A stretch of 64,000 nucleotides of DNA, from positions 4,997 through 68,996 of the forward strand of contig DATACK010000339.1 of assembly GCA_036259115.1 (NCBI GenBank), read 5' to 3'. Numbering within the stretch: the stretch's first letter is position 1; each line of letters starts with the position of its first letter. The DNA comes from Gammaproteobacteria bacterium. GTDB taxonomy: Bacteria > Pseudomonadota > Gammaproteobacteria > JACCYU01. This document shows positions 2,468 to 55,723 of the stretch, piece by piece. The notes below the pieces were generated by a model that did not search any database, was not told where the DNA came from, and saw only the letters and a program-made list of their open reading frames with translations. Position numbers and translations under genes: made by a program.

Positions 2468-4099
2468 ATGAATTACCTGTTTGCGATTGTGACCGCTACG
2501 GCGGTGAGTCTCACGGTGATACCGGTCATGATGCGTCTGGCACCCTGGCTCGGCATGATGGATCAGCCCGATCCACGTAAGGTGCATGCCAGACCGGTGC
2601 CAAGGGTCGGCGGCTGGGGGATAGCTCTAGGTGCGCTCTTACCCATTTTTATTCTGCTGCCGCACACGCCCACGGTGCTGTCCTATGTTTTTGGCGTCGC
2701 CGTATTGCTGATCTTCGGTACCTTGGATGATCGGCAGGAGATGGGGCACTACACCAAGTTCGTAGGTCAATTCCTGGCTGTACTACCTGTGGTCACCTAC
2801 GGTGGCGTATATGTTGCGCACCTGCCACTGCTCGGAATAGAGCTCATTCCCACCGCCATTGGTATTCCCTTTAGCATCTTTGCGCTAATGGGAATGATTA
2901 ACGCGATCAATCACTCCGACGGCCTGGATGGACTTGCCGGTGGCGAGGCGTTCCTGAGTTTGGCTGCGTTCGCGTTTTTGGGCTACCTGGCAGGTAGCGA
3001 TTTGGTCTTGACTATCGCCTTGGCGGCGATGGGCGGCGGGCTTGGCTTCCTGCGCTACAATACCCATCCTGCAATCGTTTTCATGGGGGATGGCGGCAGC
3101 CAATTTCTGGGATTTACGCTCGGATTTTTGGCTATAGAGCTGACCCAGCAGGCCGATAGATCGCTGAGTCCCACCGTAGTCCTGCTGCTATTAGGATTGC
3201 CCATCGCCGATATTCTAATGGTCTTGGCAAAACGTATAAGCCGAGGGATGAACTGGTTTCGTGCTACAAGGAACCACCTACATCATCGGCTATTAGATAT
3301 CGGCTTTGTGCACCAAGAGTCGGTCGTCATCATCTACACCATACAGGCACTGCTGGTCTTTAGCGGCATTGCCCTTCGTTATCAAGATGATTGGTTGTTG
3401 TTCTTTGTATATGTAGCAGCCTGTTCTGTCGTTTTCGTGGCGCTGGGTTATGCCGAGCACACCGGTTGGATGGCGCACCGGAATAATGAAGAGAATCGCC
3501 TCAGTAACACCATCTCGTATCTGAGGCTCAAGCTTTTAGTGGCACTGCCGCGACGCTTCATCGAATTCGCGGTGCCAGCCTACTTACTTATAGCGAGCCT
3601 GTTGATCGCTGATGTTCCTCAAGACTTTGGATTTGCAGCGGCCAGTATATTTCTTTTACTGCTGATCGAGTCATCCTTAAGCGTTACGTCCCGGTCGATC
3701 ATATTACGTGCACTGGTTTATGTCGTTGCTACGTTCGTTATTTACCTCAATCATAACTTCCCGCCCCCGCATATCGCTTGGTTAGATTCGGTACAGTTGG
3801 GCTTTTTCATACTATTAGCACTGGCGATAGCGGCTGCTATAAAGTTTTCCCCCCGCCGCAGGGAATTTGAATTCAGAACGACTGCCATGGACTATCTGAT
3901 GATACTCATCGTATTGAGCAGTTTGATCCTGTCGCAGACGCAGCGTGTTAATGACCAAATCAGCTTATTCGTATTCGAAGTGATAATTCTTCTCTATGCC
4001 TGCGAGCTGCTGATTATAGAAAAGAGAGAGCGCTGGAATCCGCTCACATTGTCATCTCTCGCCACGACTGGGGTTTTGATGGCGCGTGGATTAACCTAA
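2468..4099 (+). CDS. Polyprenyl-phosphate N-acetylhexosamine-1-phosphate transferase (WecA/MraY family, glycosyltransferase family 4) with a roughly 200-aa hydrophobic C-terminal extension.
   Basis: The N-terminal ~340 aa carry MraY/WecA signatures (MNYLFAIVTATAVSLTVIPVMMRLA, DDRQEMG, NAINHSDGLDGLAGG, FMGDGGSQFLGF). At 543 aa total it is much longer than WecA or WbpL at roughly 340-370 aa. The extra part is multi-helix hydrophobic sequence. Confidence 0.8.
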   Translation: MNYLFAIVTATAVSLTVIPVMMRLAPWLGMMDQPDPRKVHARPVPRVGGWGIALGALLPIFILLPHTPTVLSYVFGVAVLLIFGTLDDRQEMGHYTKFVGQFLAVLPVVTYGGVYVAHLPLLGIELIPTAIGIPFSIFALMGMINAINHSDGLDGLAGGEAFLSLAAFAFLGYLAGSDLVLTIALAAMGGGLGFLRYNTHPAIVFMGDGGSQFLGFTLGFLAIELTQQADRSLSPTVVLLLLGLPIADILMVLAKRISRGMNWFRATRNHLHHRLLDIGFVHQESVVIIYTIQALLVFSGIALRYQDDWLLFFVYVAACSVVFVALGYAEHTGWMAHRNNEENRLSNTISYLRLKLLVALPRRFIEFAVPAYLLIASLLIADVPQDFGFAAASIFLLLLIESSLSVTSRSIILRALVYVVATFVIYLNHNFPPPHIAWLDSVQLGFFILLALAIAAAIKFSPRRREFEFRTTAMDYLMILIVLSSLILSQTQRVNDQISLFVFEVIILLYACELLIIEKRERWNPLTLSSLATTGVLMARGLT

Positions 4100-4140
4100 A
4101 ATGAAAAGCTGCGCGCTGTGGAAACTGGAAAATCCGAGGA

Positions 4141-4758
4141 ATGGCCGATAACAAGGTCAAAAAAAGCCCTAACACTGTTTGGCATCATGCCACTGTTACC
4201 CGAGCCAGGCGGCAACAGCAGAACGGCCATAAATCCGTAATACTCTGGTTTACGGGCTTATCTGGGGCGGGCAAATCGACGGTTGCTCACGCCGTTGAGG
4301 AGGCGCTGCACCGGCGGGGTTGCCATACGTTTGTATTCGACGGCGATAACGTCCGTCATGGCCTGTGTTCAGACCTGAGCTTCTCTGAGGAGGCACGCAA
4401 GGAAAATATCCGCCGAGTGGGAGAAATGGCCAAGCTCTTCGTCGAGGCCGGCATCATCTCACTTACGGCTTTTATCTCACCATATCGATCGGACCGCCAG
4501 AAAGTCCGGGAACTGGTAGGTCCCGGCGATTTCATCGAGATCTACTGCCGCTGCTCTTTGGAGATCTGCGAGCGCCGTGACGTAAAAGGACTTTATAAGC
4601 GCGCGCGTCACGGGGAGATCAAGGAGTTTACCGGCATATCGTCTCCTTATGAGGAACCTGTGAATCCAGAACTGGTAATCGACACAGGAGAAACCGCGCT
4701 GGAGACGTGTGTCGATCAGGTCGTAGAATATTTGGATCGCAACGGTTATCTAAATTAA
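4141..4758 (+). CDS. cysC: Adenylyl-sulfate (APS) kinase.
   Basis: P-loop GLSGAGKST in the characteristic APS-kinase context ([23 protein letters not shown]). The 205-aa length is typical. It stands alone, with no cysD or cysN in the window. Confidence 0.9.
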
Positions 4759-7836: not shown

Positions 7837-8586
7837 CTAGCTCATGTACATGCCCCCGTTTACGGGCAAGTTGATACCGGTTATATAGCCCGATTCGTCG
7901 GCGCTTAGAAATGCCACCGCATGGGCAATCTCCGATGGATGCGCCATGCGTCCTATGGGTATACCAGCAACAATAGTGTTACGAATGTCCTCAGGCACCG
8001 CCTGGGTCATGCGTGTTTCCACATAGCCGGGCGAAATCGTATTCACGGTCACTCCCTTGCTAGCGACCTCCTGGGCTAACGCCATCGAAAAACCATGTAC
8101 TCCGGCCTTCGCCGCGGAATAGTTGGTTTGCCCAAACATGCCCTTCTGCCCATTCACTGAAGATATGTTAATGATGCGGCCGAACCTCTGTTCTATCATG
8201 CCTTCTACAACATGACGCGTTACATTAAACACACTATCTAAGTTTGTTGTAAGCACTGCGTTCCATTGCTCCGGGTCCATCTTGCGCAACGTTTTGTCTC
8301 GCGTGATGCCTGCACAATTAACCAAAATATCAATGTGGCCAAACCTCTCCCGTACACTGCGCACCATAGCTCCGCTGGACTCAAATGACGTCACGTCCCC
8401 AGCCACAATCGCGATATCCAAGCCTTCGTCTCGACGCGCCTGCTGCCACTGTTTGGCAATCGCTTCTTCACTCGGCAGATAGCCAGCGACGACCTGGCGG
8501 CCGCTTGGCGCCAAACGTCTACAAATTTCGGTACCGATTCCGCCGATTCCACCCGTAACTAACGCGACCTTCTGTTCATTATTCAT
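7837..8586 (-). CDS. Acetoacetyl-CoA reductase-like short-chain dehydrogenase (PhaB paralog).
   Basis: SDR cofactor motif ALVTGGIGGIG and catalytic YSAAK. Global similarity to the PhaB encoded 1 kb downstream on the same strand. The internal ATG (MNNEQK) was chosen because it is preceded by AGGAG; the ORF-track start at 8679 is less likely. Confidence 0.75.
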   Translation of the reverse strand: MNNEQKVALVTGGIGGIGTEICRRLAPSGRQVVAGYLPSEEAIAKQWQQARRDEGLDIAIVAGDVTSFESSGAMVRSVRERFGHIDILVNCAGITRDKTLRKMDPEQWNAVLTTNLDSVFNVTRHVVEGMIEQRFGRIINISSVNGQKGMFGQTNYSAAKAGVHGFSMALAQEVASKGVTVNTISPGYVETRMTQAVPEDIRNTIVAGIPIGRMAHPSEIAHAVAFLSADESGYITGINLPVNGGMYMS

Positions 8587-8848
8587 ATTGATAATACTCC
8601 TAGCACCGATAATACTCCTGGCGCCGCATCCTGGGATTTGGATAGTCGGCTGTCCGCGTACGAGATATAAATGCTGCAAAGCAAAATATTATACGCATCA
8701 ATGTATGTCAAGTTGCGCATGGACTTAGTGCCAACCCTAATGGTGATTTAGAGAAGTGAGAAGCACCATCAATCAATAAATTGCGCGGCAGAAACAGTCG
8801 CGCCGCAGGGAGATGCGCTTGGGCCCAGTGCGGCCACCCAGGCGCCTG

Positions 8849-9352
8849 TTAGGAATTATCGCCCGGCTTTTTGTCGTTGTCGGACGGCAGCTTGATGCCA
8901 GCCACCTTTAAGAAATTCCTTTGCATGTCGCGCCAGATCTCCAGGTTGCGCTGGGTCAGATCCGCCATGAGCTCGAACGGCGTATTGCCGCTAATCATGT
9001 TGCGCATCTGCCTTTGTAGGCGCGTTTGCTGCTCCACGAATAGTTCCAGGGTCTTCTCCAGGTAAGTAGAGAATATGCCCTGCACCGAGCCGCCGTAGAA
9101 GCGGATCATCTTAGATAGAATGTCGGCAGTGAATAGCGGTTGTCCCTCCGACTCCTGTTCCAAAATGATCTGCAGTAGGGTAGTACGCGTGATATCATCG
9201 TTAGAGTTCGCGTCAATAACCCGGAACTCCAGGCCTTGTATGACTAGTTCACGAACATCGGCCATGGTGATATAACGGCTCACCTCTGTATCATATAGGC
9301 GCCTGTTTGGATATTTCTTGATGATGCGTATCTGTTGCGCTTTGTTGGTCAT
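8849..9352 (-). CDS. phaR: Polyhydroxyalkanoate synthesis repressor PhaR.
   Basis: The N-terminus IKKYPNRRLYDTEVSRYITMADVRELV is the conserved PhaR DNA-binding signature. The position inside the pha cluster supports the call. Confidence 0.85.
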   Translation of the reverse strand: MTNKAQQIRIIKKYPNRRLYDTEVSRYITMADVRELVIQGLEFRVIDANSNDDITRTTLLQIILEQESEGQPLFTADILSKMIRFYGGSVQGIFSTYLEKTLELFVEQQTRLQRQMRNMISGNTPFELMADLTQRNLEIWRDMQRNFLKVAGIKLPSDNDKKPGDNS

Positions 9353-9437
9353 ACCAGCCTTTTATGATGCCGCCGTAAGCCGGCGATGTGGCCGGGCATA
9401 CGGCGGCCATGCGAGGATTTCTGTAGTTTAGCCTAAT

Positions 9438-10187
9438 CTAGCACATGTGTTGGCCGCCGTTGATCGAGATATCGGCGCCGTTAATGAAGGCGGCATGTTC
9501 AGAAGCTAAGAAGGTGACCATGTGCGCTACTTCTTCTGGCTCACCGAGCCGGCCTGCCGGAATGGTGGCGATAATCTTATTGCGGACATCCTCCGGAACC
9601 GCCATGACCATGTCGGTAGCAATGTATCCAGGCGAAACCGTATTCACCGTCACACCCTTACGCGCAACTTCCTGCGCCACCGACATGGTAAATCCATGCA
9701 TACCGGCCTTAGAGGCAGCGTAGTTGCTCTGGCCCATTTGACCCTTCTGACCGTTGATCGACGAGATATTGATTACGCGACCGAAACCACGCGAGGTCAT
9801 GCCTTCGATCACGTGTCGCGTTAAGTTGAAGACACTATTCAGATTAATGTTGATGACCGCACTCCATTGCTCAAAGGTCATCTTGCGCAGGGTTACGTCC
9901 TTAGTAATACCGGCATTGTTAACGAGGATATCGATAGGCCCAATCTCGCTCTCAACTGTCTTGACAAGCTCCTCGCATGCCTTGAAGTCGCTGACGTCGC
10001 TTTTATAGGCAGGAATATCGTAGCCATCATCCTGGCACTGCTGAGCCCATTTGCGGGCCTTCTCCTCATTGCGATAATTGGTCGCGACGCGACAGCCTAC
10101 ATCGGCTAACTCCCGGCATATAGCATCGCCTATCCCACCGGTGCCGCCGGTGACCAACGCAACTTTGCCCGTTAGATCAATCTTCAT
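9438..10187 (-). CDS. phaB: Acetoacetyl-CoA reductase.
   Basis: SDR motifs VALVTGGTGGIG and YAASKAG, in a 249-aa protein immediately downstream of phaA. Start taken at MKIDLTGK. Confidence 0.85.
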   Translation of the reverse strand: MKIDLTGKVALVTGGTGGIGDAICRELADVGCRVATNYRNEEKARKWAQQCQDDGYDIPAYKSDVSDFKACEELVKTVESEIGPIDILVNNAGITKDVTLRKMTFEQWSAVININLNSVFNLTRHVIEGMTSRGFGRVINISSINGQKGQMGQSNYAASKAGMHGFTMSVAQEVARKGVTVNTVSPGYIATDMVMAVPEDVRNKIIATIPAGRLGEPEEVAHMVTFLASEHAAFINGADISINGGQHMC

Positions 10188-10192
10188 TGCCC

Positions 10193-11377
10193 TCACCTCT
10201 CGACAGCAATAGCGACACCTTGACCCCCGCCGATGCACAATGTGGCTAAACCCTTTTGCACATCGCGCCGCATCATCTCGTAGAGCAGACTCACGAGCAC
10301 GCGCGCGCCGGATGCGCCGATCGGATGGCCAAGCGCGATAGCACCGCCATTGACGTTCACCTTCTCGGGATCCCAGCCCATATCACGATTAACCGCAATG
10401 GCCTGCGCAGCAAAAGCTTCATTGGCCTCGATCAAATCCAAGTCCTCGACCCGCCATCCAGCCTTTTCCAGGCAACGAGTGCTGGCGGGGATAGGCCCAG
10501 TGCCCATAATCGCCGGATCCACACCCGCGTTTGCATAGGCGGCGATGCGCGCCATGGGCTTCAAACCTAACTCCTCGGCGCGACTGCGGCTCATTACGAT
10601 TACGGCCGCGGCACCATCGTTAATACCTGATGCATTGCCCGCGGTAACCGTACCGGCATCCTTGGCGAAGGCGGGGCGTAGCTTGCTCAATCCTTCGGCG
10701 GTCACCCCTTTTCGTGGGAACTCATCCGTATCGAATACGACTGGATCGCCTTTGCGCTGAGGCACCTCGACGGGAATAATCTGATCCTTGAAGTAGCCTG
10801 CCTCTTGGGCGGCCTCGGTGCGCTGTTGCGACGTGGCCGCGAATTCGTCTTGTTCCTCGCGGCTGATTCCGTATTTCTTGGCGATATTTTCCGCTGTCGT
10901 GCCCATGTGATACTTATTAAATACGTCCCATAGGCCGTCATTGATTATGGTATCCACTAATTGCCAAGTTCCCATGCGTTGACCGGTACGAGAATTGGGC
11001 AAGGCGTGTGGAGCCTGGCTCATACTTTCCTGACCACCAGCGATGACAACCGCCGCATCACCGCAACGGATTGCTTGCGCGGCCAAGTGCACTGCCTTTA
11101 ACCCGCTGCCGCACACCTTATTAATAGTCATAGCAGGCACTGAATGCGGTAGCCCAGCCTGTATACTGGCTTGTCTTGCCGGATTCATGCCGACGCCAGC
11201 TGTCAGCACCTGTCCCAGGATTACCTCGCTAATTTGATCGGGCTGCAAACCTGCGCGGGATAGCAGCCCGGCGATAACCTTGGCACCCAGCGCGCTTGCT
11301 GGCAGTGAGGACAAGGTGCCGCCGAATGAGCCAATAGCGGTACGGCCGGCAGCCACAATGATAATGTCTTCTTTCAT
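10193..11377 (-). CDS. phaA: Acetyl-CoA acetyltransferase (beta-ketothiolase).
   Basis: Thiolase signatures: active-site Cys in [10 protein letters not shown], the C-terminal [12 protein letters not shown] motif, 394 aa. Confidence 0.9.
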
Positions 11378-11644
11378 TCTCCGCTCCTAAACTGAGATTT
11401 ACGGTTGGCTAACTCAGTTGTAATTGCTCTACGTGGGGTTACTATGCGAAATGAGGGTGTCACATGCATGCAACGCTATCAAAGCTCAGCGCGTGATACT
11501 AGATATGGATGCAACTTAAATGCCGTTACGCTTGGGTTTAGCGCAATGTTGCGACGCAAAACAAGCTTATGTTACGGTTAGTAGGGTAATATACGTGGAT
11601 TGCGGCCATGCACTTGCTCCAAATTCTCGCTGGAGGCAGTCGTC

Positions 11645-12814
11645 ATGAATGATAATCCGTTTACCGCCTGGGCCAATCAGTTGCTTGAATATCAACGTCA
11701 ATATCAAGACGTATGGCAGACATTCGCTTCCAGCGCAAATGGAGCGCGTCTCGGCGTGGAGGGCCTCAATAACGCGAATCCGTGGATAGCGGCACTGGAT
11801 CAATGGTGGAAAGCGGTATCTCCTAGTGCGGCGCCGTCGGTGCAGAATTTCTACTCCAAGCTGGTAGAACAGGGAAAGGCATACTTTCAAGTAACGGATG
11901 GTTTAAGCAGGGCGCTCCAGCAGGCGACCGCTGCGGGTGAGTCTGCCATGCGATGGCAGGAGGCCGTAAATAATGTGCTGTCCAGCCTAAGAGACATGTT
12001 CGCGGGGCAAAGGACGGATGTTCAAGGGGCTGCACGCCAGGCCATGGGCTTTTGGGAGCTGCCCCTTAATACATGGCGGAGAGCGGTATCGTCGTCAATA
12101 TTGCCCGGCGACTTTTTGCAAGATGTTGGCGCATCAAGTATCGGTCAAGTGCGCGATCAGCTCCATGGTCGCGTCGATCAACTGTTATCCACACCCGCCA
12201 TTGGCTACATGCGCGAAGATCAGGAAAAGGTACAAACCCTGATTAGGCTAAATCTCGATTATCAACAGGCGTTGCAAGATTACGTAGCTACCTATGCTGA
12301 AATAGGCGTCAAGTGTGTCGAGGTGCTGCAGCAGAATCTTCAGCAACGGGTGGCGGAACGCAAGCCTATTGAATCACTGCGCGAGCTCTATGGTCTATGG
12401 GTTGATAGCTGTGAACAGGCCTATGGTGATTACGTCAGCACTGATAAGTACGTCGAGATCTATGGACGTCTGGTTAATAGTCTGATGGCATTAAAGCGGC
12501 ACGGCCATATGATGCTCGATGAAGCATTGAACGCCGTTGACATACCAACCCGTAGGGAGATCCGTACTCTCGTGCATCGTATGCACGAAGTACGTTGGGA
12601 AGGTAAGGCGCTTAGGGCTGAGATTGAGATTTTGAAGGAACAACATCAGGCGTCGCTTAAGGAAAAGCAAGCTCGCCCTCCAGCTCCTGCCGTAAATAGA
12701 CCCAAACGCGCGGCCGCGAAGACGAAAGCGATGGCCTCAAAGTCTGCTGCTAAATCTAAGACCGAACAAAACTCCCGCACCAAGCGCGAACAATCAACTA
12801 CCAAGCGGTTCTAA
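11645..12814 (+). CDS. phaE: Class III PHA synthase subunit PhaE, with a Lys/Ala-rich C-terminal tail.
   Basis: Roughly 390-aa protein immediately upstream of and co-oriented with a ~355-aa class III PhaC, the canonical phaEC arrangement. It has coiled-coil-like central regions and a basic tail KRAAAKTKAMASKSAAKSK. The start at MNDNPF at 11645 was chosen over the ORF-track start at 11600. Confidence 0.65.
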   Translation: MNDNPFTAWANQLLEYQRQYQDVWQTFASSANGARLGVEGLNNANPWIAALDQWWKAVSPSAAPSVQNFYSKLVEQGKAYFQVTDGLSRALQQATAAGESAMRWQEAVNNVLSSLRDMFAGQRTDVQGAARQAMGFWELPLNTWRRAVSSSILPGDFLQDVGASSIGQVRDQLHGRVDQLLSTPAIGYMREDQEKVQTLIRLNLDYQQALQDYVATYAEIGVKCVEVLQQNLQQRVAERKPIESLRELYGLWVDSCEQAYGDYVSTDKYVEIYGRLVNSLMALKRHGHMMLDEALNAVDIPTRREIRTLVHRMHEVRWEGKALRAEIEILKEQHQASLKEKQARPPAPAVNRPKRAAAKTKAMASKSAAKSKTEQNSRTKREQSTTKRF

Positions 12815-12838
12815 TCGCAGACTTCGAGGAGGTAATCC

Positions 12839-13903
12839 ATGATACCGGTTCAGATCCGTCCTGATAGGGCCGCGAAGGAAATGCTCGAGTTTAATCAGAA
12901 GCTCGGCCTAGGCCTCAAGAACCTGATTAACATAGGCGAAATCAGCATAGGCGCGACGCCTACGGAGGTTATTTATCGCGAGGACAAACTGACCTTGCAC
13001 CGCTACCAGTCACCCTTCGGAGAACCGCACAATCCGGTGCCGGTTGTAGTCGTTTACGCGTTAGTGAATCGCCCCTATATGGCTGATCTGCAAGAAGATC
13101 GCTCGCTCGTGCGGGGCATGCTTAAGGCTGGTCAGGACGTGTATCTGATCGACTGGGGATACCCGGATCGCGCCGACCAGTATCTGACCATGGATGATTA
13201 TATCAACGGATATCTAGACCGCAGTGTAGACACTATTCGGCGGAGGCATGGGATTGACAAGGTCAACATGTTGGGCATCTGTCAAGGCGGCACCTTCAGC
13301 CTGTGTTACAGCGCCATACATGCACATAAAGTGAAGAATCTGATCACGATGGTGACACCAGTCGATTTTCAAACCCCAGGCGATTTGCTTAGTCGTTGGG
13401 TACAACAGATCGATGTCGATCTGCTGGTGGACACTATGGGCAACGTATCCGGCGATCTCATGAACTGGATGTTTCTGTCACTTAAACCCTTCCGCCTGAT
13501 GGGCCAAAAATATCTGGACATGGTCGATTTGCTTGATGATGAGGAGCAGGCCCGCAATTTCCTGCGCATGGAAAAATGGATATTTGACAGCCCGGATCAG
13601 GTCGGCGAGACGTTCAAGCAATTCGTTAAAGGCTTCTATCAAGAAAACCGCCTGATCAAGGGCGAGGTGCAGCTCGGCGCGCATCGTGTAGATCTGAGAA
13701 ACATCACGATGCCGGTCTTGAATATCTATGCCAGAGAGGATCATCTGGTGCCGCCGCCTGCAAGCACCGCCCTCAAGCGCTATGTAAGCACGCGTGATTA
13801 TAGTGAATTAGACTTCCCAGGCGGCCACATCGGCATCTATGTTAGCGGAAAGTCACAGAAAACCGTGCCCCCGGCAATCGGTGAGTGGCTCGATGCTAGA
13901 TAA
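12839..13903 (+). CDS. phaC: Class III poly(3-hydroxyalkanoate) synthase catalytic subunit PhaC.
   Basis: 354 aa with an alpha/beta-hydrolase fold and a lipase-box-like GICQGG (G-x-C-x-G) carrying the catalytic Cys. The size and the phaE partner are typical of class III synthases. Confidence 0.85.
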   Translation: MIPVQIRPDRAAKEMLEFNQKLGLGLKNLINIGEISIGATPTEVIYREDKLTLHRYQSPFGEPHNPVPVVVVYALVNRPYMADLQEDRSLVRGMLKAGQDVYLIDWGYPDRADQYLTMDDYINGYLDRSVDTIRRRHGIDKVNMLGICQGGTFSLCYSAIHAHKVKNLITMVTPVDFQTPGDLLSRWVQQIDVDLLVDTMGNVSGDLMNWMFLSLKPFRLMGQKYLDMVDLLDDEEQARNFLRMEKWIFDSPDQVGETFKQFVKGFYQENRLIKGEVQLGAHRVDLRNITMPVLNIYAREDHLVPPPASTALKRYVSTRDYSELDFPGGHIGIYVSGKSQKTVPPAIGEWLDAR

Positions 13904-14028
13904 GCAAGAAATATCCGCTGCGCTGATTCTAGGCAACTGATTAGACTTTTATTGCAGTGCCACAAATATTAGCAAATTCTCAGTGCCTTAAGCGCCCCAT
14001 CAATGATCTTACAGGAGAAGCAGCTACC

Positions 14029-15624
14029 ATGGCTACTCAAGCTTATGAGCAGTCGTCACCGGCCCTCGAAGTGACCGGGCAACTGACTTCGCAATTTAGG
14101 GAGGTTCTAACCCCTGCGGCGCTAGATTTTGTGGCGGCGCTGGCATGGCGTTTCACGGCGCGGCGCGACGAATTACTGGCAATGAGGCATGAACGTCAGA
14201 CGCGTTTGGATGCTGGTGTGATGCCGGACTTTCTGCCCGAAACAGCAGAGATCCGCAGGAGCAGCTGGCGGATAGCGCCGGCGCCAGCGGATTTACAAGA
14301 CCGCCGGGTGGAGATTACCGGCCCTGTCGATCGCAAGATGATCATCAATGCGCTCAATTCTGGCGCTAAGGTTTTCATGGCTGATTTCGAAGACGCTCAT
14401 GCGCCGACTTGGGAGGGCACTATTCAGGGCCAGATTAATCTCCGTGATGCGGTTAATGGCACTATTGAGTTTACAAATCCTCAGGGCAAGCAGTATCGTC
14501 TAAATGATTCTGTCGCAACACTCGTTGTGCGCCCGCGTGGTTGGCATCTGCCCGAGAAACACGTCTTGCTGGACGGTTTGCCCATCCCGGGTGCATTCTT
14601 GGACTTCGGACTGTATCTCTTCCACAACGCTCATACATTATTAGATAGAGGTAGCGGGCCATACTTTTACTTACCCAAACTCGAAAGTCATCTCGAGGCT
14701 CGACTTTGGAATGATGTTTTTAACTATGCCGAGCAGGTGTTGAGTATTCCACATGGAAGCATCAAGGCCACGGTGCTTATAGAGACCATCTTGGCAGCAT
14801 TCGAGATGGATGAAATCCTCTACGAGCTGCGCGATCACGTTGTCGGACTCAACTGCGGGCGTTGGGATTATATTTTCAGCTTTATCAAATGCTTTCATAA
14901 GCATCCTCAGTTCATTTTGGCCGATCGTTCGCAGCTCACGATGACGGCGCACTTCATGCGTTCGTATTCGCTGCTGTTAATCAAGACCTGCCACCGGCGC
15001 GGCGTGCATGCAATGGGTGGGATGGCGGCGCAGATCCCCATTAAAGGGGATCCAGAAGCTAATGAAATAGCGTTAGCTAAGGTACGCGCGGATAAGGAGC
15101 GTGAGGCACGCGACGGCCACGATGGAACCTGGGTAGCGCATCCCGGCCTGGTGTCCGTCGCCGAGGAGATATTCAATCGATATATGCCCGGACCTAATCA
15201 GATTGAACGGCAGCGCGATGATGTCAAAGTAACGGCACAGGATTTGCTTTCTATACCTGAAGGCGGGATTACTGAAGCCGGATTGGCTGGTAATGTTAGT
15301 GCGGCGTTACGTTACATCGCGGCCTGGAAGGGAGGGCAGGGTTCAGTGCCCATTCATAACCTTATGGAAGATGTGGCGACTGCGGAGATCGCGCGAGCCC
15401 AGCTGTGGCAATGGGTTCGGTATCCCAAAGGTGTTATGAACGATGGCCGTAAGGTAACGATTGAACTGTTCGACCAAGCGCTAGAGCATGAGTTGCAGCA
15501 AATCCGCTATGAACTCGGAGATCCGCAGTTCGAGAAAAGCCATGCGCAAGCCGCAGCCGCTTTGTTACGCAAGCTGGTAATTGACGACCGATTTGCAGAA
15601 TTTTTAACGCTGGAAGCGGACTGA
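14029..15624 (+). CDS. aceB: Malate synthase A.
   Basis: Roughly 530 aa with malate synthase A family motifs. It lies directly upstream of isocitrate lyase. Start taken at MATQAYEQ; the ORF-track start at 13957 is possible. Confidence 0.85.
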
Positions 15625-15744: not shown

Positions 15745-17055
15745 ATGAGTAAACAGTTATCAACGAATGAGCTAGAGCGGGACTGGGGGGGGAATCCCCG
15801 CTGGCAGGGCGTGCAACGCGGTTATACGGCCGCGGATGTCGTGCGGTTGCGCGGCAGCTTGCAGATCGAGCATACGCTTGCGCGGCATGGAGCACAGAAG
15901 CTTTGGGAGCGCCTGACCCATGAGGATTACGTACACGCGCTGGGCGCTATGACAGGCAATCAGGCCATGCAAATGGCTAAAGCGGGCTTGAAGGCGATCT
16001 ATCTGAGCGGCTGGCAGGTTGCCGCGGACGCAAACAGTAGTTTTCAGATGTATCCTGATCAGAGCCTTTATCCGGTCGACAGCGTGCCCACGGTGGTCAG
16101 AAAGATTAACAATGCATTCAAACGGGCGGATGAGATTTATCACGCTGAAGGCAAAGATGAGATCGATTGGTTTGTCCCCGTAGTCGCCGACGCCGAGGCT
16201 GGCTTCGGCGGCATCTTGAACGCCTTCGAGCTGATGAAGGGCATGATTGAGGCGGGTGCCGCAGGCGTGCATTTTGAAGATCAATTGGCTTCAGCCAAGA
16301 AATGCGGCCACATGGGCGGCAAGGTTTTGGTGCCCACTCAAGAGGCGATTACCAAGCTTGTAGCCGCGCGTCTGGCTGCGGATATCATGGGCGTGCCGAC
16401 TATTATCTTAGCGCGTACCGACGCGGAGGCGGCTAATCTGCTGACTTCGGACGCCGATGAGAACGATAGGCCATTCTTGACCGGCGAACGCACTTATGAG
16501 GGTTTTTTCCGTGTCAGAAGCGGCCTTGAGCAGGCTATCTCCCGCGGACTTGCCTACGCGCCTTTCGCCGACTTGGTGTGGTGTGAAACGGGTAAACCGG
16601 ATCTCAAGTTTGCCAAGGCATTCGCAGAGGCTATCCACAAGCAATATCCCGATAAGCTGCTGGCTTATAACTGTTCACCATCGTTCAACTGGCGCAAGAA
16701 TCTAGATGACGCCACCATCGTGAAATTCCAGCGTGAACTAGGTGCTATGGGATATAAGTTCCAGTTCATCACGCTAGCCGGGTTCCATGCCCTCAACTAC
16801 AGCATGTTCGATCTCGCCGATAAGTACCGGGATCAGGGCATGAGCGCTTACGTGGAATTGCAGCAAAAGGAATTTGCGGCCGAGACACGGGGCTATACGG
16901 CGACTAAACATCAACGTGAAGTCGGTGCCGGCTATTTTGATAGCGTGACCTCGGTCATTACCGGCGGCGCATCCTCGCTGGGTGCATTGAGTGGTTCAAC
17001 CGAAGAAGAACAGTTCGAGACGAGTATGCCCAAGCTCGCAAGCGTCGACAAGTAA
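15745..17055 (+). CDS. aceA: Isocitrate lyase.
   Basis: ICL signature K-KCGH-GGK ([18 protein letters not shown]), 436 aa. Confidence 0.92.
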
Positions 17056-17175: not shown

Positions 17176-18543
17176 ATGGCCTACGAATATGTCTTAAGGC
17201 CCGCCGAGGGGGAGCCGATCACCGCCAATCCGGATAACACACTCAATGTTCCCGATCATCCAATAATCCCTTTCGTGGAAGGTGACGGAATTGGCATTGA
17301 CGTAACGCCAGTGATGCGAAGGGCCGTCAATGCCGCGGTGAAAAAGGCCTACGGCGATAAGCGCTCGATCGCATGGATGGAGATCTACGCCGGTGAGAAG
17401 GCGCTCAAGTTGTATGGTGAGAACACCTGGTTACCCGAAGAGACCCTCGATGCGATGCGCAAATTTGTCGTGTCGATTAAGGGGCCATTGACCACGCCCA
17501 TTGGGCAGGGCATGCGCTCGCTGAACGTAGCGATTCGGCAGAAGCTTGACCTCTACGCCTGCATACGGCCGATTCGCTATTTCCCAGGAACGCCGACGCC
17601 TTTGAAGGAATCAAGCGATACGGATATGGTGGTGTTTCGGGAGAACACCGAAGACATCTATGCTGGCATCGAGTGGGCCGCGGAAAGCGAACAGGTCAAA
17701 AAGGTCATCAATTTCCTGCGTCACGAAATGGGCGTCACTGAGATCCGATTTCCTGCTAGTTCGGGTATCGGTATCAAGCCGGTATCTCGCGAGGGCTCGG
17801 CGCGTCTGGTGCGCAAGGCGATTCAGTACGCCATAGATTGTGATCGCAGATCGGTCGCCCTGGTACATAAGGGTAATATCATGAAGTATACGGAAGGCGC
17901 ATTCCGAACTTGGGGTTACGAGGTAGCCGACAAGGAATTTGGTGCCGTGCTGATTGGCGAAGGACCTTGGCGACGAATTACCAACCCCGTAACTGGCAAC
18001 GAAATCATTATAAAAGACGTCATCGCCGATAACTTCTTGCAGCAGATTTTACTGCGTCCCGAGGATTACGATGTAATCGCGACGTTGAATCTCAACGGCG
18101 ATTACATCTCCGATGCACTCGCGGCGCAAGTGGGCGGAATCGGTATTGCGCCGGGTGCTAACATTGCCGACACCATCGCCGTATTCGAGGCGACTCACGG
18201 TACCGCGCCTAAGTACGCGGGCAAAAACCGTGTAAATCCTGGTTCTATCATCTTATCCGCCGAGATGATGCTCAGATACATGGGTTGGACTGAAGCGGCC
18301 GATCTGATTTTGAAAGGCGTAAGGGGCGCAATTGCCGCCAGGACCGTGACCTATGATCTGGCCAGGGCACGCGCTGGCATGCTCGCGCGTGGCGTGCGGG
18401 TAGACAGCACGCGGGCGGTAGAAGAGAGCCTCGAACGCCTTATGCCTGGCGCCACCTTGGTGACAACTTCCGGTTTTGGTGACGCCGTAATTGCGAGTAT
18501 GAATGCCCCGCCCACCCAGCGGAGAGATCCTAAGCTTAATTGA
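17176..18543 (+). CDS. icd: NADP-dependent isocitrate dehydrogenase (prokaryotic homodimeric type).
   Basis: Near-colinear with E. coli Icd from memory ([88 protein letters not shown]). The regulatory Ser in GMRSLNV is conserved. Confidence 0.9.
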
Positions 18544-18563: not shown

Positions 18564-19379
18564 TCAGTAACTGTGGCGCTGCAGGCCTCTCTCCTGCACA
18601 ATGCGGGTAGCAATTTCCTCGACCGAGCGCGTCGTCGTGGCAAGGAACGGGATACCTTTTGCTTTGTACAAATCCTCCACGGCCCGAACCTCGTAACGGC
18701 ATTGCTCTATGGAGGCATAGCGACTGCCGGGGCGGCGGGCCGTACGAATACTCTGCAGGCGTTCCGGAGTGGTGGTCAAGCCGTATAGCTTATCCACATA
18801 CGGTCTTAGCATACGCGGCAGCACCCCTTGGCCCAGATCTTCCTCTGTAATGGGATAGTTAGCTGCACGAATGCCGAACTGAAGTGCGAGATACAGGCAA
18901 GTTGGGGTTTTCCCGGAGCGGGATACCCCGATAAGGATAATGTCGGATTGGTCGTACTGTTGGGTATAAGCGCCGTCATCATGCAGCAGCGCAAAATTGA
19001 TGGCCTCCATGCGGGATTCATATCTGTGCACATCGACAAGCCGGTGCGAACGCTCCGCGCGCTCTCGCGGCTTTATCTCAAGCTCTGTTTCCAATGGCTG
19101 TAAAAACTGATGAAAGAGGTCCAACACCAATCCGTGCGAGGCCAGGATCAAGGCTCTGATATCTGGATTGGCCAATGTGCTGAATACAATGGGCCGATTG
19201 GCGTCTTGCGCTGCGGCGCGATCGATCTGTTCGGCCACCGATGCTGCTTTATCACGGCTGTCGACATAGGGCACAGTGAATTCGCGATATTGTAGGCCTT
19301 CGAATTGAGCTAGAAGACTATGCCCTAAGGTTTCCGCGGTAATGGCAGTACGATTAGATAAAAAAAATACACTACGCAT
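18564..19379 (-). CDS. ppsR: PEP synthase regulatory protein (bifunctional kinase/pyrophosphorylase, PSRP/DUF299).
   Basis: 271 aa. It is divergent from ppsA and has the P-loop-like motif GVSRSGKTPT, which together define this family. Confidence 0.85.
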   Translation of the reverse strand: MRSVFFLSNRTAITAETLGHSLLAQFEGLQYREFTVPYVDSRDKAASVAEQIDRAAAQDANRPIVFSTLANPDIRALILASHGLVLDLFHQFLQPLETELEIKPRERAERSHRLVDVHRYESRMEAINFALLHDDGAYTQQYDQSDIILIGVSRSGKTPTCLYLALQFGIRAANYPITEEDLGQGVLPRMLRPYVDKLYGLTTTPERLQSIRTARRPGSRYASIEQCRYEVRAVEDLYKAKGIPFLATTTRSVEEIATRIVQERGLQRHSY

Positions 19380-23697: not shown

Positions 23698-23788
23698 GGA
23701 GAGGTGTCCGAGCGGTCGAAGGAGCACGCCTGGAAAGTGTGTATACGTTAATAGCGTATCGAGGGTTCGAATCCCTCCCTCTCCGCCA
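23698..23788 (+). tRNA. tRNA-Ser, anticodon GGA.
   Basis: 91 nt: GGAGAGGTGTCCGAGCGGTCGAAGGAGCACGCCTGGAAAGTGTG...GGTTCGAATCCCTCCCTCTCCGCCA. It shows a type II long variable arm, the T-loop GGTTCGAATCC, the anticodon loop CU-GGA-AA, and an encoded CCA. Confidence 0.9.
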
Positions 23789-24047: not shown

Positions 24048-24161
<114 letters not shown>

Positions 24162-26972: not shown

Positions 26973-28739
26973 TTATTCTTCTGGCTCCCAACCGAATTCC
27001 TCCACGATCTCGAACAGATTGGTCTCTGAGACGATACCTACAGGAGTGCCGTCTTCTTCGACGACAACGCGACGGATTCCATGCTCTGCCATCGTCATTG
27101 ATATCGTCTGCAATGTAGCCTCGGCGGGTACAGTCACGAGCGGTCGGGTGGCGATTTCGCTTACCTTGATCTTGCCCGCGGATTGGTTGGCGCGAACGAT
27201 TTTGGTGACGATGTCACGCTGAGTCATGATGCCCCATACGCCGTCTGCGTCCGGCTCGGCGAGAATCGAGCTGATGCCGTGTTCGCCCATGAGGTGTATA
27301 GCCTCCGATACCGGCGCGTCATTGGGCACAGTCTTAACCGGGGACATCGCATGACCTGCGGTTGTCGGCCGGCCTCCCGCGGCCTTCATGGCCTGTACTG
27401 GGTCTTTAATGCGCTGCGCCTCGCGTTGCTTGCGCTCATCCTCTAGTGCCTCGCGACGCTGCTCCTCTAAGCGCACAAGATCTTTCGCACTGCCCCTGAT
27501 CTTAGCAATCAGCGCGTCGGCAAAAACAGATGTCGATACGACGTGTGCGTCCTCCATTTGGCGCGCGAAATCGTAAGTCACGAACTTCTCGCCGATCACC
27601 TGCGGATAGGCCGCATTGATCAGATCGGCCGCCTCTTTCCAGCCCATGTGTTCCATCAGTAGGGCGCCAGATAGCAACATTGAGCTGGGATTAACCTTAT
27701 TCTGGTTGGCATACTTAGGGGCCGTGCCATGAGTCGCCTCGAACACGGCGACCTCATCGCCGATGTTAGCGCCAGGCGCGATGCCGATGCCGCCGACCTC
27801 CGCCGCCAAGGCATCGGAAAGATAATCACCGTTTAAGTTCATGGTCGCGAGCACATCGAATTCACTGGGTCGCAGCAGCAGGAGTTGGAAGATGATATCA
27901 GCGATGCGGTCCTTGATGACGATCCTATCCTGCGGCTGTTTGCCGCCGTATTCGTTGTACAGCTCTTCTTCGGTGATGATGCGCTTCCGGAATTCCTCTT
28001 TTGCCACCTCGTAGCCCCACTTCCGGAATGCACCCTCGGTAAACTTCATGATGTTACCCTTGTGCACCAAGGTGACACTTTCACGGTCTTGATCGATGGC
28101 GTATTGAATCGCCTTGCGTACGAGACGCTTGGTAGCGAATGGGCTAATCGGTTTGACGCCTAATCCTGCAGCTTCAAAAAAGCGCTCGCCTAGCTCCTCC
28201 CGCAAGAAGTGGGCGAGCTTGGTGTTTGCTGGGCTCCCGCTTTCATATTCGATACCCGCATATACGTCTTCGGTATTTTCTCGGAAAACCACCACGTCCA
28301 CCCGCTCGGGGTAACGCAGTGGTGAGGGCACTCCAGCGTAATAACGCACTGGTCGCACGCAGGCATAGAGGTCCAGCTGCTGGCGCAAGGCGACGTTGAG
28401 CGAGCGATAGCCCTCGCCTACTGGGGTGGTGAGCGGACCCTTGATAGCAAGGGAGATCTCTTTTAGCGCATCCAGTGTCTCTTGTGGGAAATAATCTCCG
28501 GCGAACAACTGCGCTGCCTTTTCCCCCATGTACAGCTCGCACCAGTGAATGCGGCGGCCGCTGTAAGCCTTCTCTACTGCCGCGTCCCACACCCGCAGGC
28601 AAGCCCGTGTGATATCCGGCCCAATGCCGTCGCCCTCAATGTAACCGATGATAGGATTGTCCGGCACGTCCAGCCCGTGCGGCGACCTCCTAATCCTCTC
28701 GCCGCCCGGAGGGAGTTGAGTGTGGTGATACGCCATCAT
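26973..28739 (-). CDS. NADP-isocitrate dehydrogenase paralog fused to a C-terminal tandem CBS (Bateman) domain.
   Basis: The N-terminal ~420 aa are colinear with Icd ([73 protein letters not shown]). A charged linker follows ([19 protein letters not shown]). The last ~120 aa contain two CBS motifs ([28 protein letters not shown]...GIMTQRDIV and [43 protein letters not shown]). Confidence 0.85.
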
Positions 28740-28803
28740 CGCCTCCTAAGTGCTGTCAGCCTGACGCGGATTAGCTCAGCTGGACCACTTATAGAAGATC
28801 TGA

Positions 28804-29778
28804 TTACGGAAGCAGTATGGTGGAGCCCGTGGTCTTGCGAGCCTCCAGAGCGCGATGAGCATTCGCTGCATCTTGTAGTGGGTATGACTGACCTATCTTG
28901 ATTTTTACGTGCCCTTGGACCACTACATCGAAAAGTTCACGCGCTGTGGTAAGCAGGTCTTCGCGTTTGGCGGTGTAAGTCATCAAAGTCGGCCGGGTCA
29001 GAAACAGTGATCCTTTCCGGCTCAGCACGCTGAGGTCGAACGGTTCCACATTACCAGACGACTGTCCGAAGCTCACCATAAGCCCAAATGGCCGCAGGCA
29101 ATCCAGCGAGCGCATAAAAGTGTCCTTGCCCACCGAGTCATAGACGACCGGCACGCCGGCACGATCCGTGATGTCCTTGACCTTTTGCACAAAGTTCTCG
29201 CGCGTGTAGATTATCGTGTGATGACAGCCATGTTTGGCGGCAAGCTCCGCTTTGGCCTCGGAGCCTACTGTGCCGATCACTGTTGCACCCAAATACCTGG
29301 CCCACTGACAGGCGATCAGCCCGACGCCGCCGGCGATCGCGTGAAATAGGATCGTGTCACCTGCCTTAACCGGATAAACGCGTCGCAGTAGATACTGCGC
29401 TGTCATGCCCTTGAGCATCATCGCGGCGGCGGTGCGATCATCAACTGAATCGGGAACATGCACCAGGCGGTCCGCTGGTATGACACGCTTCTCGGAATAA
29501 GCGCCCAAAGGGCCGGCATACGCCACGCGATCTCCAACTTGAAAGTCGTCGACGCCAGGTCCTAGGGCCTCGACTTGGCCAGACGCCTCCTGGCCTGGAA
29601 TGAACGGAAATCTAACCGCAGGATAGACACCTTTGCGGAAGTATATGTCAATAAAATTAACACCGATGGCGGTATGCCGGATTAATACCTCGCCAAGCCC
29701 CGGTTTCCCAACCTCGACTTCTTCGAAGCGCAAGACCTCGGCCGAGCCGGTTTCGTGTACTTGAATTGCCTTTGGCAT
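28804..29778 (-). CDS. qor: NADPH:quinone oxidoreductase (zeta-crystallin-like medium-chain dehydrogenase).
   Basis: 324 aa with an MDR fold and the nucleotide-binding motif AIAGGVGLIACQ. Similar to Qor from memory. Confidence 0.75.
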   Translation of the reverse strand: MPKAIQVHETGSAEVLRFEEVEVGKPGLGEVLIRHTAIGVNFIDIYFRKGVYPAVRFPFIPGQEASGQVEALGPGVDDFQVGDRVAYAGPLGAYSEKRVIPADRLVHVPDSVDDRTAAAMMLKGMTAQYLLRRVYPVKAGDTILFHAIAGGVGLIACQWARYLGATVIGTVGSEAKAELAAKHGCHHTIIYTRENFVQKVKDITDRAGVPVVYDSVGKDTFMRSLDCLRPFGLMVSFGQSSGNVEPFDLSVLSRKGSLFLTRPTLMTYTAKREDLLTTARELFDVVVQGHVKIKIGQSYPLQDAANAHRALEARKTTGSTILLP

Positions 29779-55411: not shown

Positions 55412-55723
55412 GGCTGCGAATTGAGTATGAGTAAGACGCATGGCAGCATTAACTATGATGTCGCCGCATTTTGCCGTTGCTTATTTGTCGCCGAAAGCCA
55501 AGTATGATATAAAAGCGCGCCCATCGGGTGCAAATGCCACATGCTATCATTGAGCTTGGCTCAAGCGGATTATGTCGGCGAATGGCACTCCGATACCTAA
55601 TCCGCACATGCGCCATCACGGGCGGCTGGGTGCTCCGCCTCTGAATTAAGTCTTTTGATTCAAGTCGGGGTCGCCGCTCGGGGCGCATGGAGGCCTAAAC
55701 CCAACCTTTAAAAGGACTTGTTC

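Follow-up and report, generated by a model that had tools for sequence, protein, structure and literature searches.

A gene on the minus strand of a 64,000-nucleotide stretch of gammaproteobacterial DNA (contig DATACK010000339.1 of assembly GCA_036259115.1, positions 4,997 to 68,996, the whole of which is termed the window here) encodes an isocitrate dehydrogenase (Icd) that continues C-terminally into a pair of CBS domains. The preferred reading of this protein, Icd-CBS, to which a probability of about one half is given, is that it is a predicted active NADP-dependent Icd carrying in cis a regulatory Bateman module on a rigid charged helix, i.e. an allosterically tuned isozyme. That enzymes can be regulated by CBS domains is known as such, and what is new here is Icd as the catalytic partner.

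Reading frame and domain organization of Icd-CBS

The gene (26973..28739, minus strand) is complete, being a single open reading frame (ORF) of 588 amino acids counted from the first ATG, with its stop codon at 26973-26975 and, in the ORF listing, no internal stop. A Pfam scan of the 588-residue product gives Iso_dh at residues 31-409 (E 2.3e-88) together with two CBS stretches (PF00571, E 1.6e-22, 80 bits against a cut-off of 24), as expected from an initial annotation, made from the sequence alone, in which an Icd fused to a tandem CBS domain had been proposed. The NCBIfam models TIGR00183 prok_nadp_idh (624.7 bits, cut-off 567.3) and NF005425 (613.4 bits, cut-off 490) each span residues 5-414, and the NCBIfam scan has no model that covers the whole architecture. 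On the minus strand the catalytic core, with a type I homodimeric NADP-Icd fold by PDB and Foldseek matches, occupies residues 1-414 (27498..28739) and is followed by a linker of residues 415-458 (27366..27497), CBS motif 1 at residues ~459-520 (27180..27365) and CBS motif 2 at residues ~521-588 (26976..27179), the best Pfam CBS stretch in the last of these being 526-579.

A Shine-Dalgarno sequence, AGGAGG, read from the sequence at 28742..28747 (minus strand), is 2 nucleotides before the first ATG and 5 before the second, the start region being AGGAGG-cg-ATG-ATG. Since Icd-CBS homologs, of 586-592 residues, begin MAY or MSY, the second ATG is the likelier start, and the true product is probably one of 587 amino acids that starts at 28736 and begins MAY. 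Residue numbers here are those from the first ATG.

The catalytic core

The core has its PDB matches in the Icds of P. aeruginosa, A. fulgidus and E. coli (residues 2-414, E 1e-155 to 1e-158). An AlphaFold2 (AF2) model of the full-length protein, with a predicted local distance difference test score (pLDDT) of 83 and a predicted template-modelling score (pTM) of 0.73, is placed by Foldseek onto solved Icds with target-normalised template-modelling (TM) scores of 0.86-0.94. In a 59-sequence alignment S113, N115, R119, R129, R153, Y160, K227, D281, D305 and D309 are invariant, and R290, H337, K342, Y343, V349, Y389 and R393 are invariant or at least 90% conserved. The former we take to correspond to the catalytic, substrate and metal residues S113, N115, R119, R129, R153, Y160, K230', D283', D307 and D311 of the E. 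coli enzyme, and the latter presumably to its NADP determinants R292', H339, K344, Y345, V351, Y391 and R395, the correspondence being set by well-known motifs and not computed. Because the substrate, metal and NADP residues are kept, a catalytically dead fusion is unlikely, and the sequence predicts an active NADP-dependent Icd of the homodimer type. Ser113 occurs in both Icd paralogs of the window; as all type I Icds use it in substrate binding, its presence does not discriminate for or against control by the kinase AceK.

The linker and the CBS pair

The charged linker that had been noted from the letters of the sequence appears in the AF2 secondary structure as a predicted long helix rich in E, R and K (residues 418-445, i.e. 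~28 residues), followed by a short helix (447-453) and a conserved P..M..SGR.P motif leading into CBS motif 1; pLDDT in the linker block is 69-87. Few indels fall within the linker in the alignment, and the overall length of the protein hardly varies among family members. After the linker helices the tail of the AF2 model has two beta-alpha-beta-beta-alpha units. Modelled alone with 31 homologs, the tail is a Bateman module (pLDDT 92, AF2) that matches solved CBS pairs in Foldseek with TM 0.77-0.83 and E ~1e-12, so that both the Pfam scores, which are above threshold, and the predicted fold bear out the identification of the C-terminal ~120 amino acids as a CBS pair. Its closest solved fold is CBS-CP12 of Microcystis (PDB 5NMU, TM ~0.8, 29% identity), with PH0107, Rv2626c/Hrp1, AcuB and MJ0100 as further fold neighbours, and some of the CBS-pair neighbours were solved with AMP, ADP, ATP or S-adenosylmethionine (SAM). 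By sequence, the PDB relatives of the tail are generic CBS-pair proteins only.

Both CBS motifs have the ribose-binding pattern G-h-h-(S/T)-x-x-(D/N), as GIMTQRD at 503-509 (within WGIMTQRD, of the form G-h-h-T-x-x-D) and GIVSETN at 568-574, the last position of which is D in most homologs. W502, G503, I504, T506, R508 and D509 of CBS motif 1 are at least 90% conserved. In CBS motif 2 R556, R557, G568, S571, V579, E581, F582, G583 and W584 are nearly invariant (G568 and S571 at least 90%), which includes the IRR motif and the C-terminal VEEFGW motif. On its sequence, the pair keeps the motifs for ribose binding that a sensor of the nucleotide or SAM type should have. Mean identity to the window protein, in the metagenome Icd-CBS set, is 74% for the core, 43% for the linker and 51-54% for the CBS motifs, and from these values and the invariant motif residues the tail is under weaker constraint than the core, yet is clearly maintained.

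Conservation of this kind could also reflect a mainly structural role, in which pairing of Bateman modules builds oligomers or filaments, or stabilises the enzyme, with no small-molecule signalling. CBS pairs almost always dimerise (PMC6142219), the length of the linker helix is conserved as for a geometric spacer, and the invariant VEEFGW motif could be an interface. However, few positions of the tail are as conserved as the predicted ligand-site residues, and the loss of the tail in nested lineages (below) indicates that the Icd folds, and presumably works, without it, which leaves a mainly structural role quite improbable.

Distribution of the fusion

In a protein search of a 5.8-billion-protein collection, from which the 120 best clusters were taken, all 120 are of the Iso_dh plus CBS type, almost all of 587-592 amino acids apart from a few that are partial or shorter, with identities of 67-98%. 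Their public names are only 'isocitrate dehydrogenase (NADP(+))', and the organism labels include Gammaproteobacteria, Acidiferrobacterales, Competibacterales and one Phycisphaerales. Clustering at 50% leaves essentially one full-length representative, P0125, plus fragments, so Icd-CBS is one compact family. A word-index search with the tail as query returned 22 fragments and missed known full-length members, making it unusable for a family count. The species-representative genome scan, whose pattern TYDFAR[QL]M also catches plain Icds, has among the matches listed at least 7 complete fusion loci, complete fusions there being from metagenome-assembled genomes (MAGs) of Gammaproteobacteria and a betaproteobacterial one, Candidatus Contendobacter and the isolate Aquisalimonas lutea CECT 8326. 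The window's own genome is not among the matches listed, and an exact-sequence look-up of the window protein gave no match. The closest relative is the MAG GCA_013695765.1, which is syntenic and 80% identical. A metagenome scan with the tail alone yielded 80 loci, of which 61 extend far enough upstream to be tested; at least 57 of these have an Icd core and the tail in one reading frame, and the complete metagenome Icd-CBS ORFs (n=52) are of 586-600 amino acids. The length-conserved architecture is, to judge from these sequences, held under selection across a mostly gammaproteobacterial Icd clade.

With this recurrence, the suspicion that a missed stop or a mistake in sequencing or assembly has joined two genes, or that the gene is a decaying pseudogene, has negligible probability. 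The frame is uninterrupted, the same architecture and length recur in more than 120 clusters and on 57 or more independent contigs from metagenomes, and functional residues are conserved in both the Icd and the CBS parts. An artefact is refuted on these grounds, and the locus is one gene and not two, as first proposed.

The fusion had also been called unusual, and this stands in part. No solved Icd-CBS structure was found in the PDB, where no solved Icd aligns past ~425 columns and hence no such structure exists, and a literature search found no description of an Icd-CBS protein; on the other side, public data hold a well-populated family annotated as NADP-Icd. The fusion has already misled automatic annotation. 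Standalone CBS-pair proteins of ~137 amino acids from Chloroflexota (P0272-P0390) are in many cases named 'isocitrate dehydrogenase' by JGI, evidently a label transferred from Icd-CBS fusions. The organisms concerned form a large group of uncultured Proteobacteria that are sulfur-oxidising, halophilic or accumulate glycogen or polyhydroxyalkanoate (PHA).

Origin of the fusion and a second, independent case

In a neighbour-joining tree of Icd cores (100 bootstraps) the gammaproteobacterial fusions together with six CBS-less Icds (L011, L012, L016, L017, L024, L038) form one clade in 99/100 bootstraps, and plain Chloroflexota Icds are its sister group (100/100). A different type of fusion is present in Chloroflexota themselves. 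In locus L088, from an Oscillochloridaceae MAG (GCA_048381555.1), an uncalled ORF at 2672-4483 (plus strand) encodes a 603-residue Icd-CBS protein with Iso_dh at 1.2e-90 and two CBS stretches at 1.1e-26. The public gene call there comprises the last 160 amino acids only (P0410), labelled a CBS protein, and the clue that led to the full ORF was that P0410 begins MIANMD, the sequence with which Chloroflexia Icds end. The core of the 603-residue protein shares 82% identity with plain Roseiflexus Icd and 58% with the fusion of the window; in the tree it falls among Roseiflexus and Chloroflexaceae Icds in 83/100 bootstraps, and with the gammaproteobacterial clade in 0/100. In place of a charged helix the protein has a short linker rich in Pro, and identities of its tail are 47% with that of the window protein and 51% with a standalone Roseiflexus CBS protein. 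A Chloroflexaceae locus syntenic with it (L031) has the same nuo-icd arrangement without CBS, and in a Roseiflexus MAG (L008) a standalone CBS pair of the same subfamily is convergent to icd.

The same CBS subfamily has thus been fused independently to two Icd lineages, that of the window and that of Chloroflexota. Functional coupling of the CBS module to Icd is supported by two independent fusions of one subfamily, which are the strongest evidence here that the module acts on Icd; the comparison of sequences makes a functional link likely. A wider connection of the subfamily, recognizable by a C-terminal VEExGW motif, to pentose-phosphate and NADPH metabolism is suggested by a protein in which it is fused to ribulose-phosphate 3-epimerase (P0148), and by two loci (L086, 5001-8028, and L087, 4266-7293) where a standalone CBS gene overlaps rpiB by 4 nucleotides and is followed by genes for transaldolase (tal) and 6-phosphogluconolactonase (pgl).

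Several considerations weigh against a ligand-gated Icd. The CBS-less Icds mentioned above nest inside the fusion clade and the fusions alone are monophyletic in 0/100 bootstraps; the tail is therefore dispensable in some lineages, and its loss or gain has occurred more than once. Where this CBS subfamily occurs as a standalone protein, its gene is usually not next to icd. Adjacency of a standalone CBS gene to icd was entertained as a general rule and rejected, as three further standalone members with long contigs are not beside icd, so that the Rosetta-stone idea survives only through the Oscillochloridaceae fusion. The ligand assignment discussed below draws on motif conservation and fold neighbours only, and is put forward, like the direction of the effect and the docking geometry of the Bateman module, as a prediction.

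Possible modes of action

Coexistence of Icd-CBS with an ordinary Icd beside aceB-aceA argues that it is a separately regulated isozyme. As envisaged here the CBS pair would bind a small ligand, by its motifs most probably AMP, ADP or ATP, and binding would change Icd activity by limiting the open/closed movement of the large domain that bears the helix. Alternatively, Bateman modules might pair within or between Icd dimers, with change of activity as the consequence. Either way, isocitrate oxidation and NADPH output could then track the energy state of the cell without involvement of a kinase.

The sequence itself does not discriminate among adenosine-containing ligands. The signal may also be of another sort. 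A CBS pair that senses ionic strength, Mg2+, c-di-AMP, SAM, or NAD(P)H and redox state would match Icd output to salinity or redox conditions instead of to energy. An Aquisalimonas isolate and contigs with brine-sample names are among the sources of the family, and the recurrent neighbour of the gene encodes an NADPH-type quinone oxidoreductase. The links of the subfamily to ribulose-phosphate epimerase and to an rpiB-tal-pgl operon, whose genes are of the NADPH-linked pentose-phosphate set, are also pertinent. There are precedents in that CBS pairs bind SAM, as in MJ0100, and c-di-AMP, as in DarB (PMC9293649). Such a non-energy signal is judged unlikely, given that the positions characteristic of adenosine-ribose binding, Thr/Ser and Asp/Asn, are retained in both motifs.

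Comparison with other regulated enzymes

The control of Icd is a textbook example of regulation in metabolism, exerted by AceK phosphorylation in E. coli and by ADP/citrate allostery in mitochondrial IDH3. The E. coli-type, AceK-controlled Icd is of the same family and fold as Icd-CBS and has the same active-site residues, Ser113 included, and the same NADP-specificity residues. The differences are that the window protein has a 174-residue linker plus CBS tail seen in no solved Icd, that no aceK is near its gene whereas many plain icd genes have aceK adjacent, and that its core is placed in a separate subclade, with Icds of Chloroflexota as the nearest plain relatives. A distinctive 22-residue stretch is common to the Icd-CBS core and Archaeoglobus fulgidus Icd. 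Appending a C-terminal domain to an Icd has a precedent in the Thermus thermophilus enzyme (PDB 2D1C; TIGR02924 / PRK09222), but that domain is not a CBS pair and Icd-CBS scores well below the cut-offs of the Thermus-type models (221.1 against 561.35 bits and 271.8 against 509 bits).

Setting of Icd flux by metabolites instead of by AceK has been described for mycobacterial ICD2, which is activated by glyoxylate (PMC4999502), and, reportedly, for P. aeruginosa ICD/IDH (bioRxiv 10.1101/318345). Neither has a dedicated sensor domain, and the mycobacterial enzyme is of a different Icd type. If the preferred reading of Icd-CBS is true, an Icd with its own Bateman sensor would be a fourth, self-contained mode of Icd control.

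Among enzymes with CBS pairs, adenine or guanine nucleotides or SAM bind the pair and alter activity in IMP dehydrogenase, CBS-pyrophosphatase and cystathionine beta-synthase (as reported in PMC11303537 and PMC11172384). IMP dehydrogenase and its like resemble Icd-CBS in having a catalytic domain and a Bateman module in one chain, and differ in that the module of Icd-CBS is C-terminal on a long charged helix and not inserted in the catalytic domain. Icd is not among the CBS enzymes described in the papers that the literature search found. The closest fold neighbour is instructive, since CBS-CP12 binds AMP specifically, as measured by isothermal titration calorimetry, and lowers phosphoribulokinase activity in an AMP-dependent manner (PMC6142219). 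It too has a CBS pair fused to a regulator of central carbon metabolism, but it acts in trans and forms hexamers via CP12, whereas in Icd-CBS the pair is fused in cis to the enzyme.

The glyoxylate shunt and AceK

According to the initial annotation, Icd-CBS could control the branch point between the tricarboxylic acid (TCA) cycle and glyoxylate shunt instead of AceK. The absence of aceK from view on which this was partly built is real at the scale of the window, with none found within its 64 kb by tblastn (E<=10) and no AceK domain in Pfam scans of the large ORFs. The query was an E. coli AceK sequence checked on the Pfam AceK models, where it scores 404.7 and 372.6 bits. With it, aceK was not found by tblastn at 10 genome or assembly fusion loci, nor in the flanks of 80 metagenome fusion loci. 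As a positive control, plain-icd loci from the genome scan (n=70, among the matches listed) were searched with the same query and aceK is within 10 kb of icd in 19 of them (L044, L047, L064, L065, L018, L013, L014, L020, L023, L030, L032, L039, L041, L046, L049, L054, L056, L066 and L076). The hosts of these 19 are Betaproteobacteria, Steroidobacteraceae and others, and aceB or aceA is also nearby in L044 and L065.

In favour of a branch-point role, besides this contrast in aceK between fusion and plain-icd loci, aceB-aceA and a second icd are 8-13 kb from the fusion in the window and in the two loci syntenic with it, L082 and L089, both of which also carry plain icd, PSRP and ppsA. In L002 aceA, encoded on the same strand as Icd-CBS, begins 0.9 kb downstream of it. 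The mycobacterial enzyme provides a precedent for kinase-free allosteric control (PMC4999502). Against it, among the genome or assembly fusion loci aceA is nearby in L082 and L002 only, with aceA and aceB absent from 8/10, and the shunt-side arrangement occurs in one metagenome fusion locus, the syntenic L089, with aceA, aceB and aceK in 0/79 of the others. The surroundings of the fusion are variable, with adenylylsulfate (APS) reductase genes in L081, thiolase in L007 and PSRP in a few loci. Moreover, the neighbour of aceBA is the plain Icd and not the fusion, and the clade of that plain Icd includes L044, L047, L064 and L065, all with aceK adjacent. Since aceK is often adjacent in this clade, it may lie outside the window in the present genome. 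Conserved context lends the proposal no support, aceA/aceB being near the fusion only in the window's own lineage and L002, and a regulator of the TCA/glyoxylate branch point standing in for AceK is distinctly unlikely; Icd-CBS may have a part in shunt partitioning, though its surroundings do not point to one.

A broader scheme would have the VEExGW CBS pairs as a dedicated sensor recruited repeatedly to NADPH-producing carbon enzymes, with Icd-CBS, where aceBA and a plain Icd co-occur, as a kinase-free ligand-gated valve that sets the TCA/glyoxylate and NADPH balance instead of AceK. This is a speculative extension, held with low confidence.

The plain paralog and other features of the window

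The second full-length Icd of the initial annotation, at 17176..18543 (plus strand), is a plain NADP-Icd paralog of 455 amino acids, of the E. coli/Pseudomonas type, that passes the NADP-Icd models (NF005425 705.8 bits, TIGR00183 679.7 bits) and is separated by 8.4 kb from Icd-CBS. It does directly follow aceB-aceA, as had been said, Pfam identifying malate synthase A (aceB, 13957-15624, plus strand, MS_TIM-barrel 3e-116) and then isocitrate lyase (aceA, 15745-17055, plus strand, ICL 7.5e-109) upstream of it. Being 56-58% identical to the fusion core and in a separate, E. coli-type clade, it shows the two icd genes of the window to be old paralogs rather than products of a recent duplication. 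In the plain Icd the NADP-contact motif TYDLAR is immediately followed by an insertion of ~24 residues, and there is a short additional tail at the C-terminus. The insertion is common to its 83%-identical relative in L082 (19636-20982) and is absent from other members of the clade.

Downstream of plain icd are genes for a PSRP kinase/pyrophosphorylase and for phosphoenolpyruvate (PEP) synthase (ppsA), a standard divergent pair. The PSRP kinase (18564-19379) was considered as an AceK substitute and rejected, being the ordinary divergent partner of ppsA, with the same pair in L082. Upstream of aceB is a PHA cluster (7837-13903) with phaR, phaA, two reductases of the short-chain dehydrogenase/reductase (SDR) or PhaB-like type, phaE and a class III phaC, and with aceB-aceA-icd it makes up a single block of genes related to acetyl-CoA, PHA, the glyoxylate shunt and NADPH. 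Within the cluster the ORFs for an SDR reductase and a thiolase (9438-10238 and 10193-11377, minus strand) overlap by 46 nucleotides, the GTG start of the reductase probably being placed too far upstream.

A gene for a qor-like zinc-type quinone oxidoreductase (28804..29778, minus strand; Pfam ADH_N and ADH_zinc_N) is 64 nucleotides upstream of Icd-CBS and is possibly co-transcribed with it. No terminator-like site is present in the gap between the two, and promoter and terminator scans gave nothing above shuffled expectation by which to decide operon structure. Homologs of qor adjoin Icd-CBS in 8/80 metagenome loci and are also beside the CBS-less relatives L011 and L016; no gene other than a qor-type one recurs next to members of this Icd subclade, CBS-bearing and CBS-less alike (L011, L016, L111, L116, L117, L145, L146, L148, L163). 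Housekeeping RNA features of the window are a tRNA-Ser (GGA) at 23698-23788, the small signal recognition particle (SRP) RNA just upstream of dnaX (24056-24152) and a t44 RNA element (55585-55699) upstream of the ORF at 55718.

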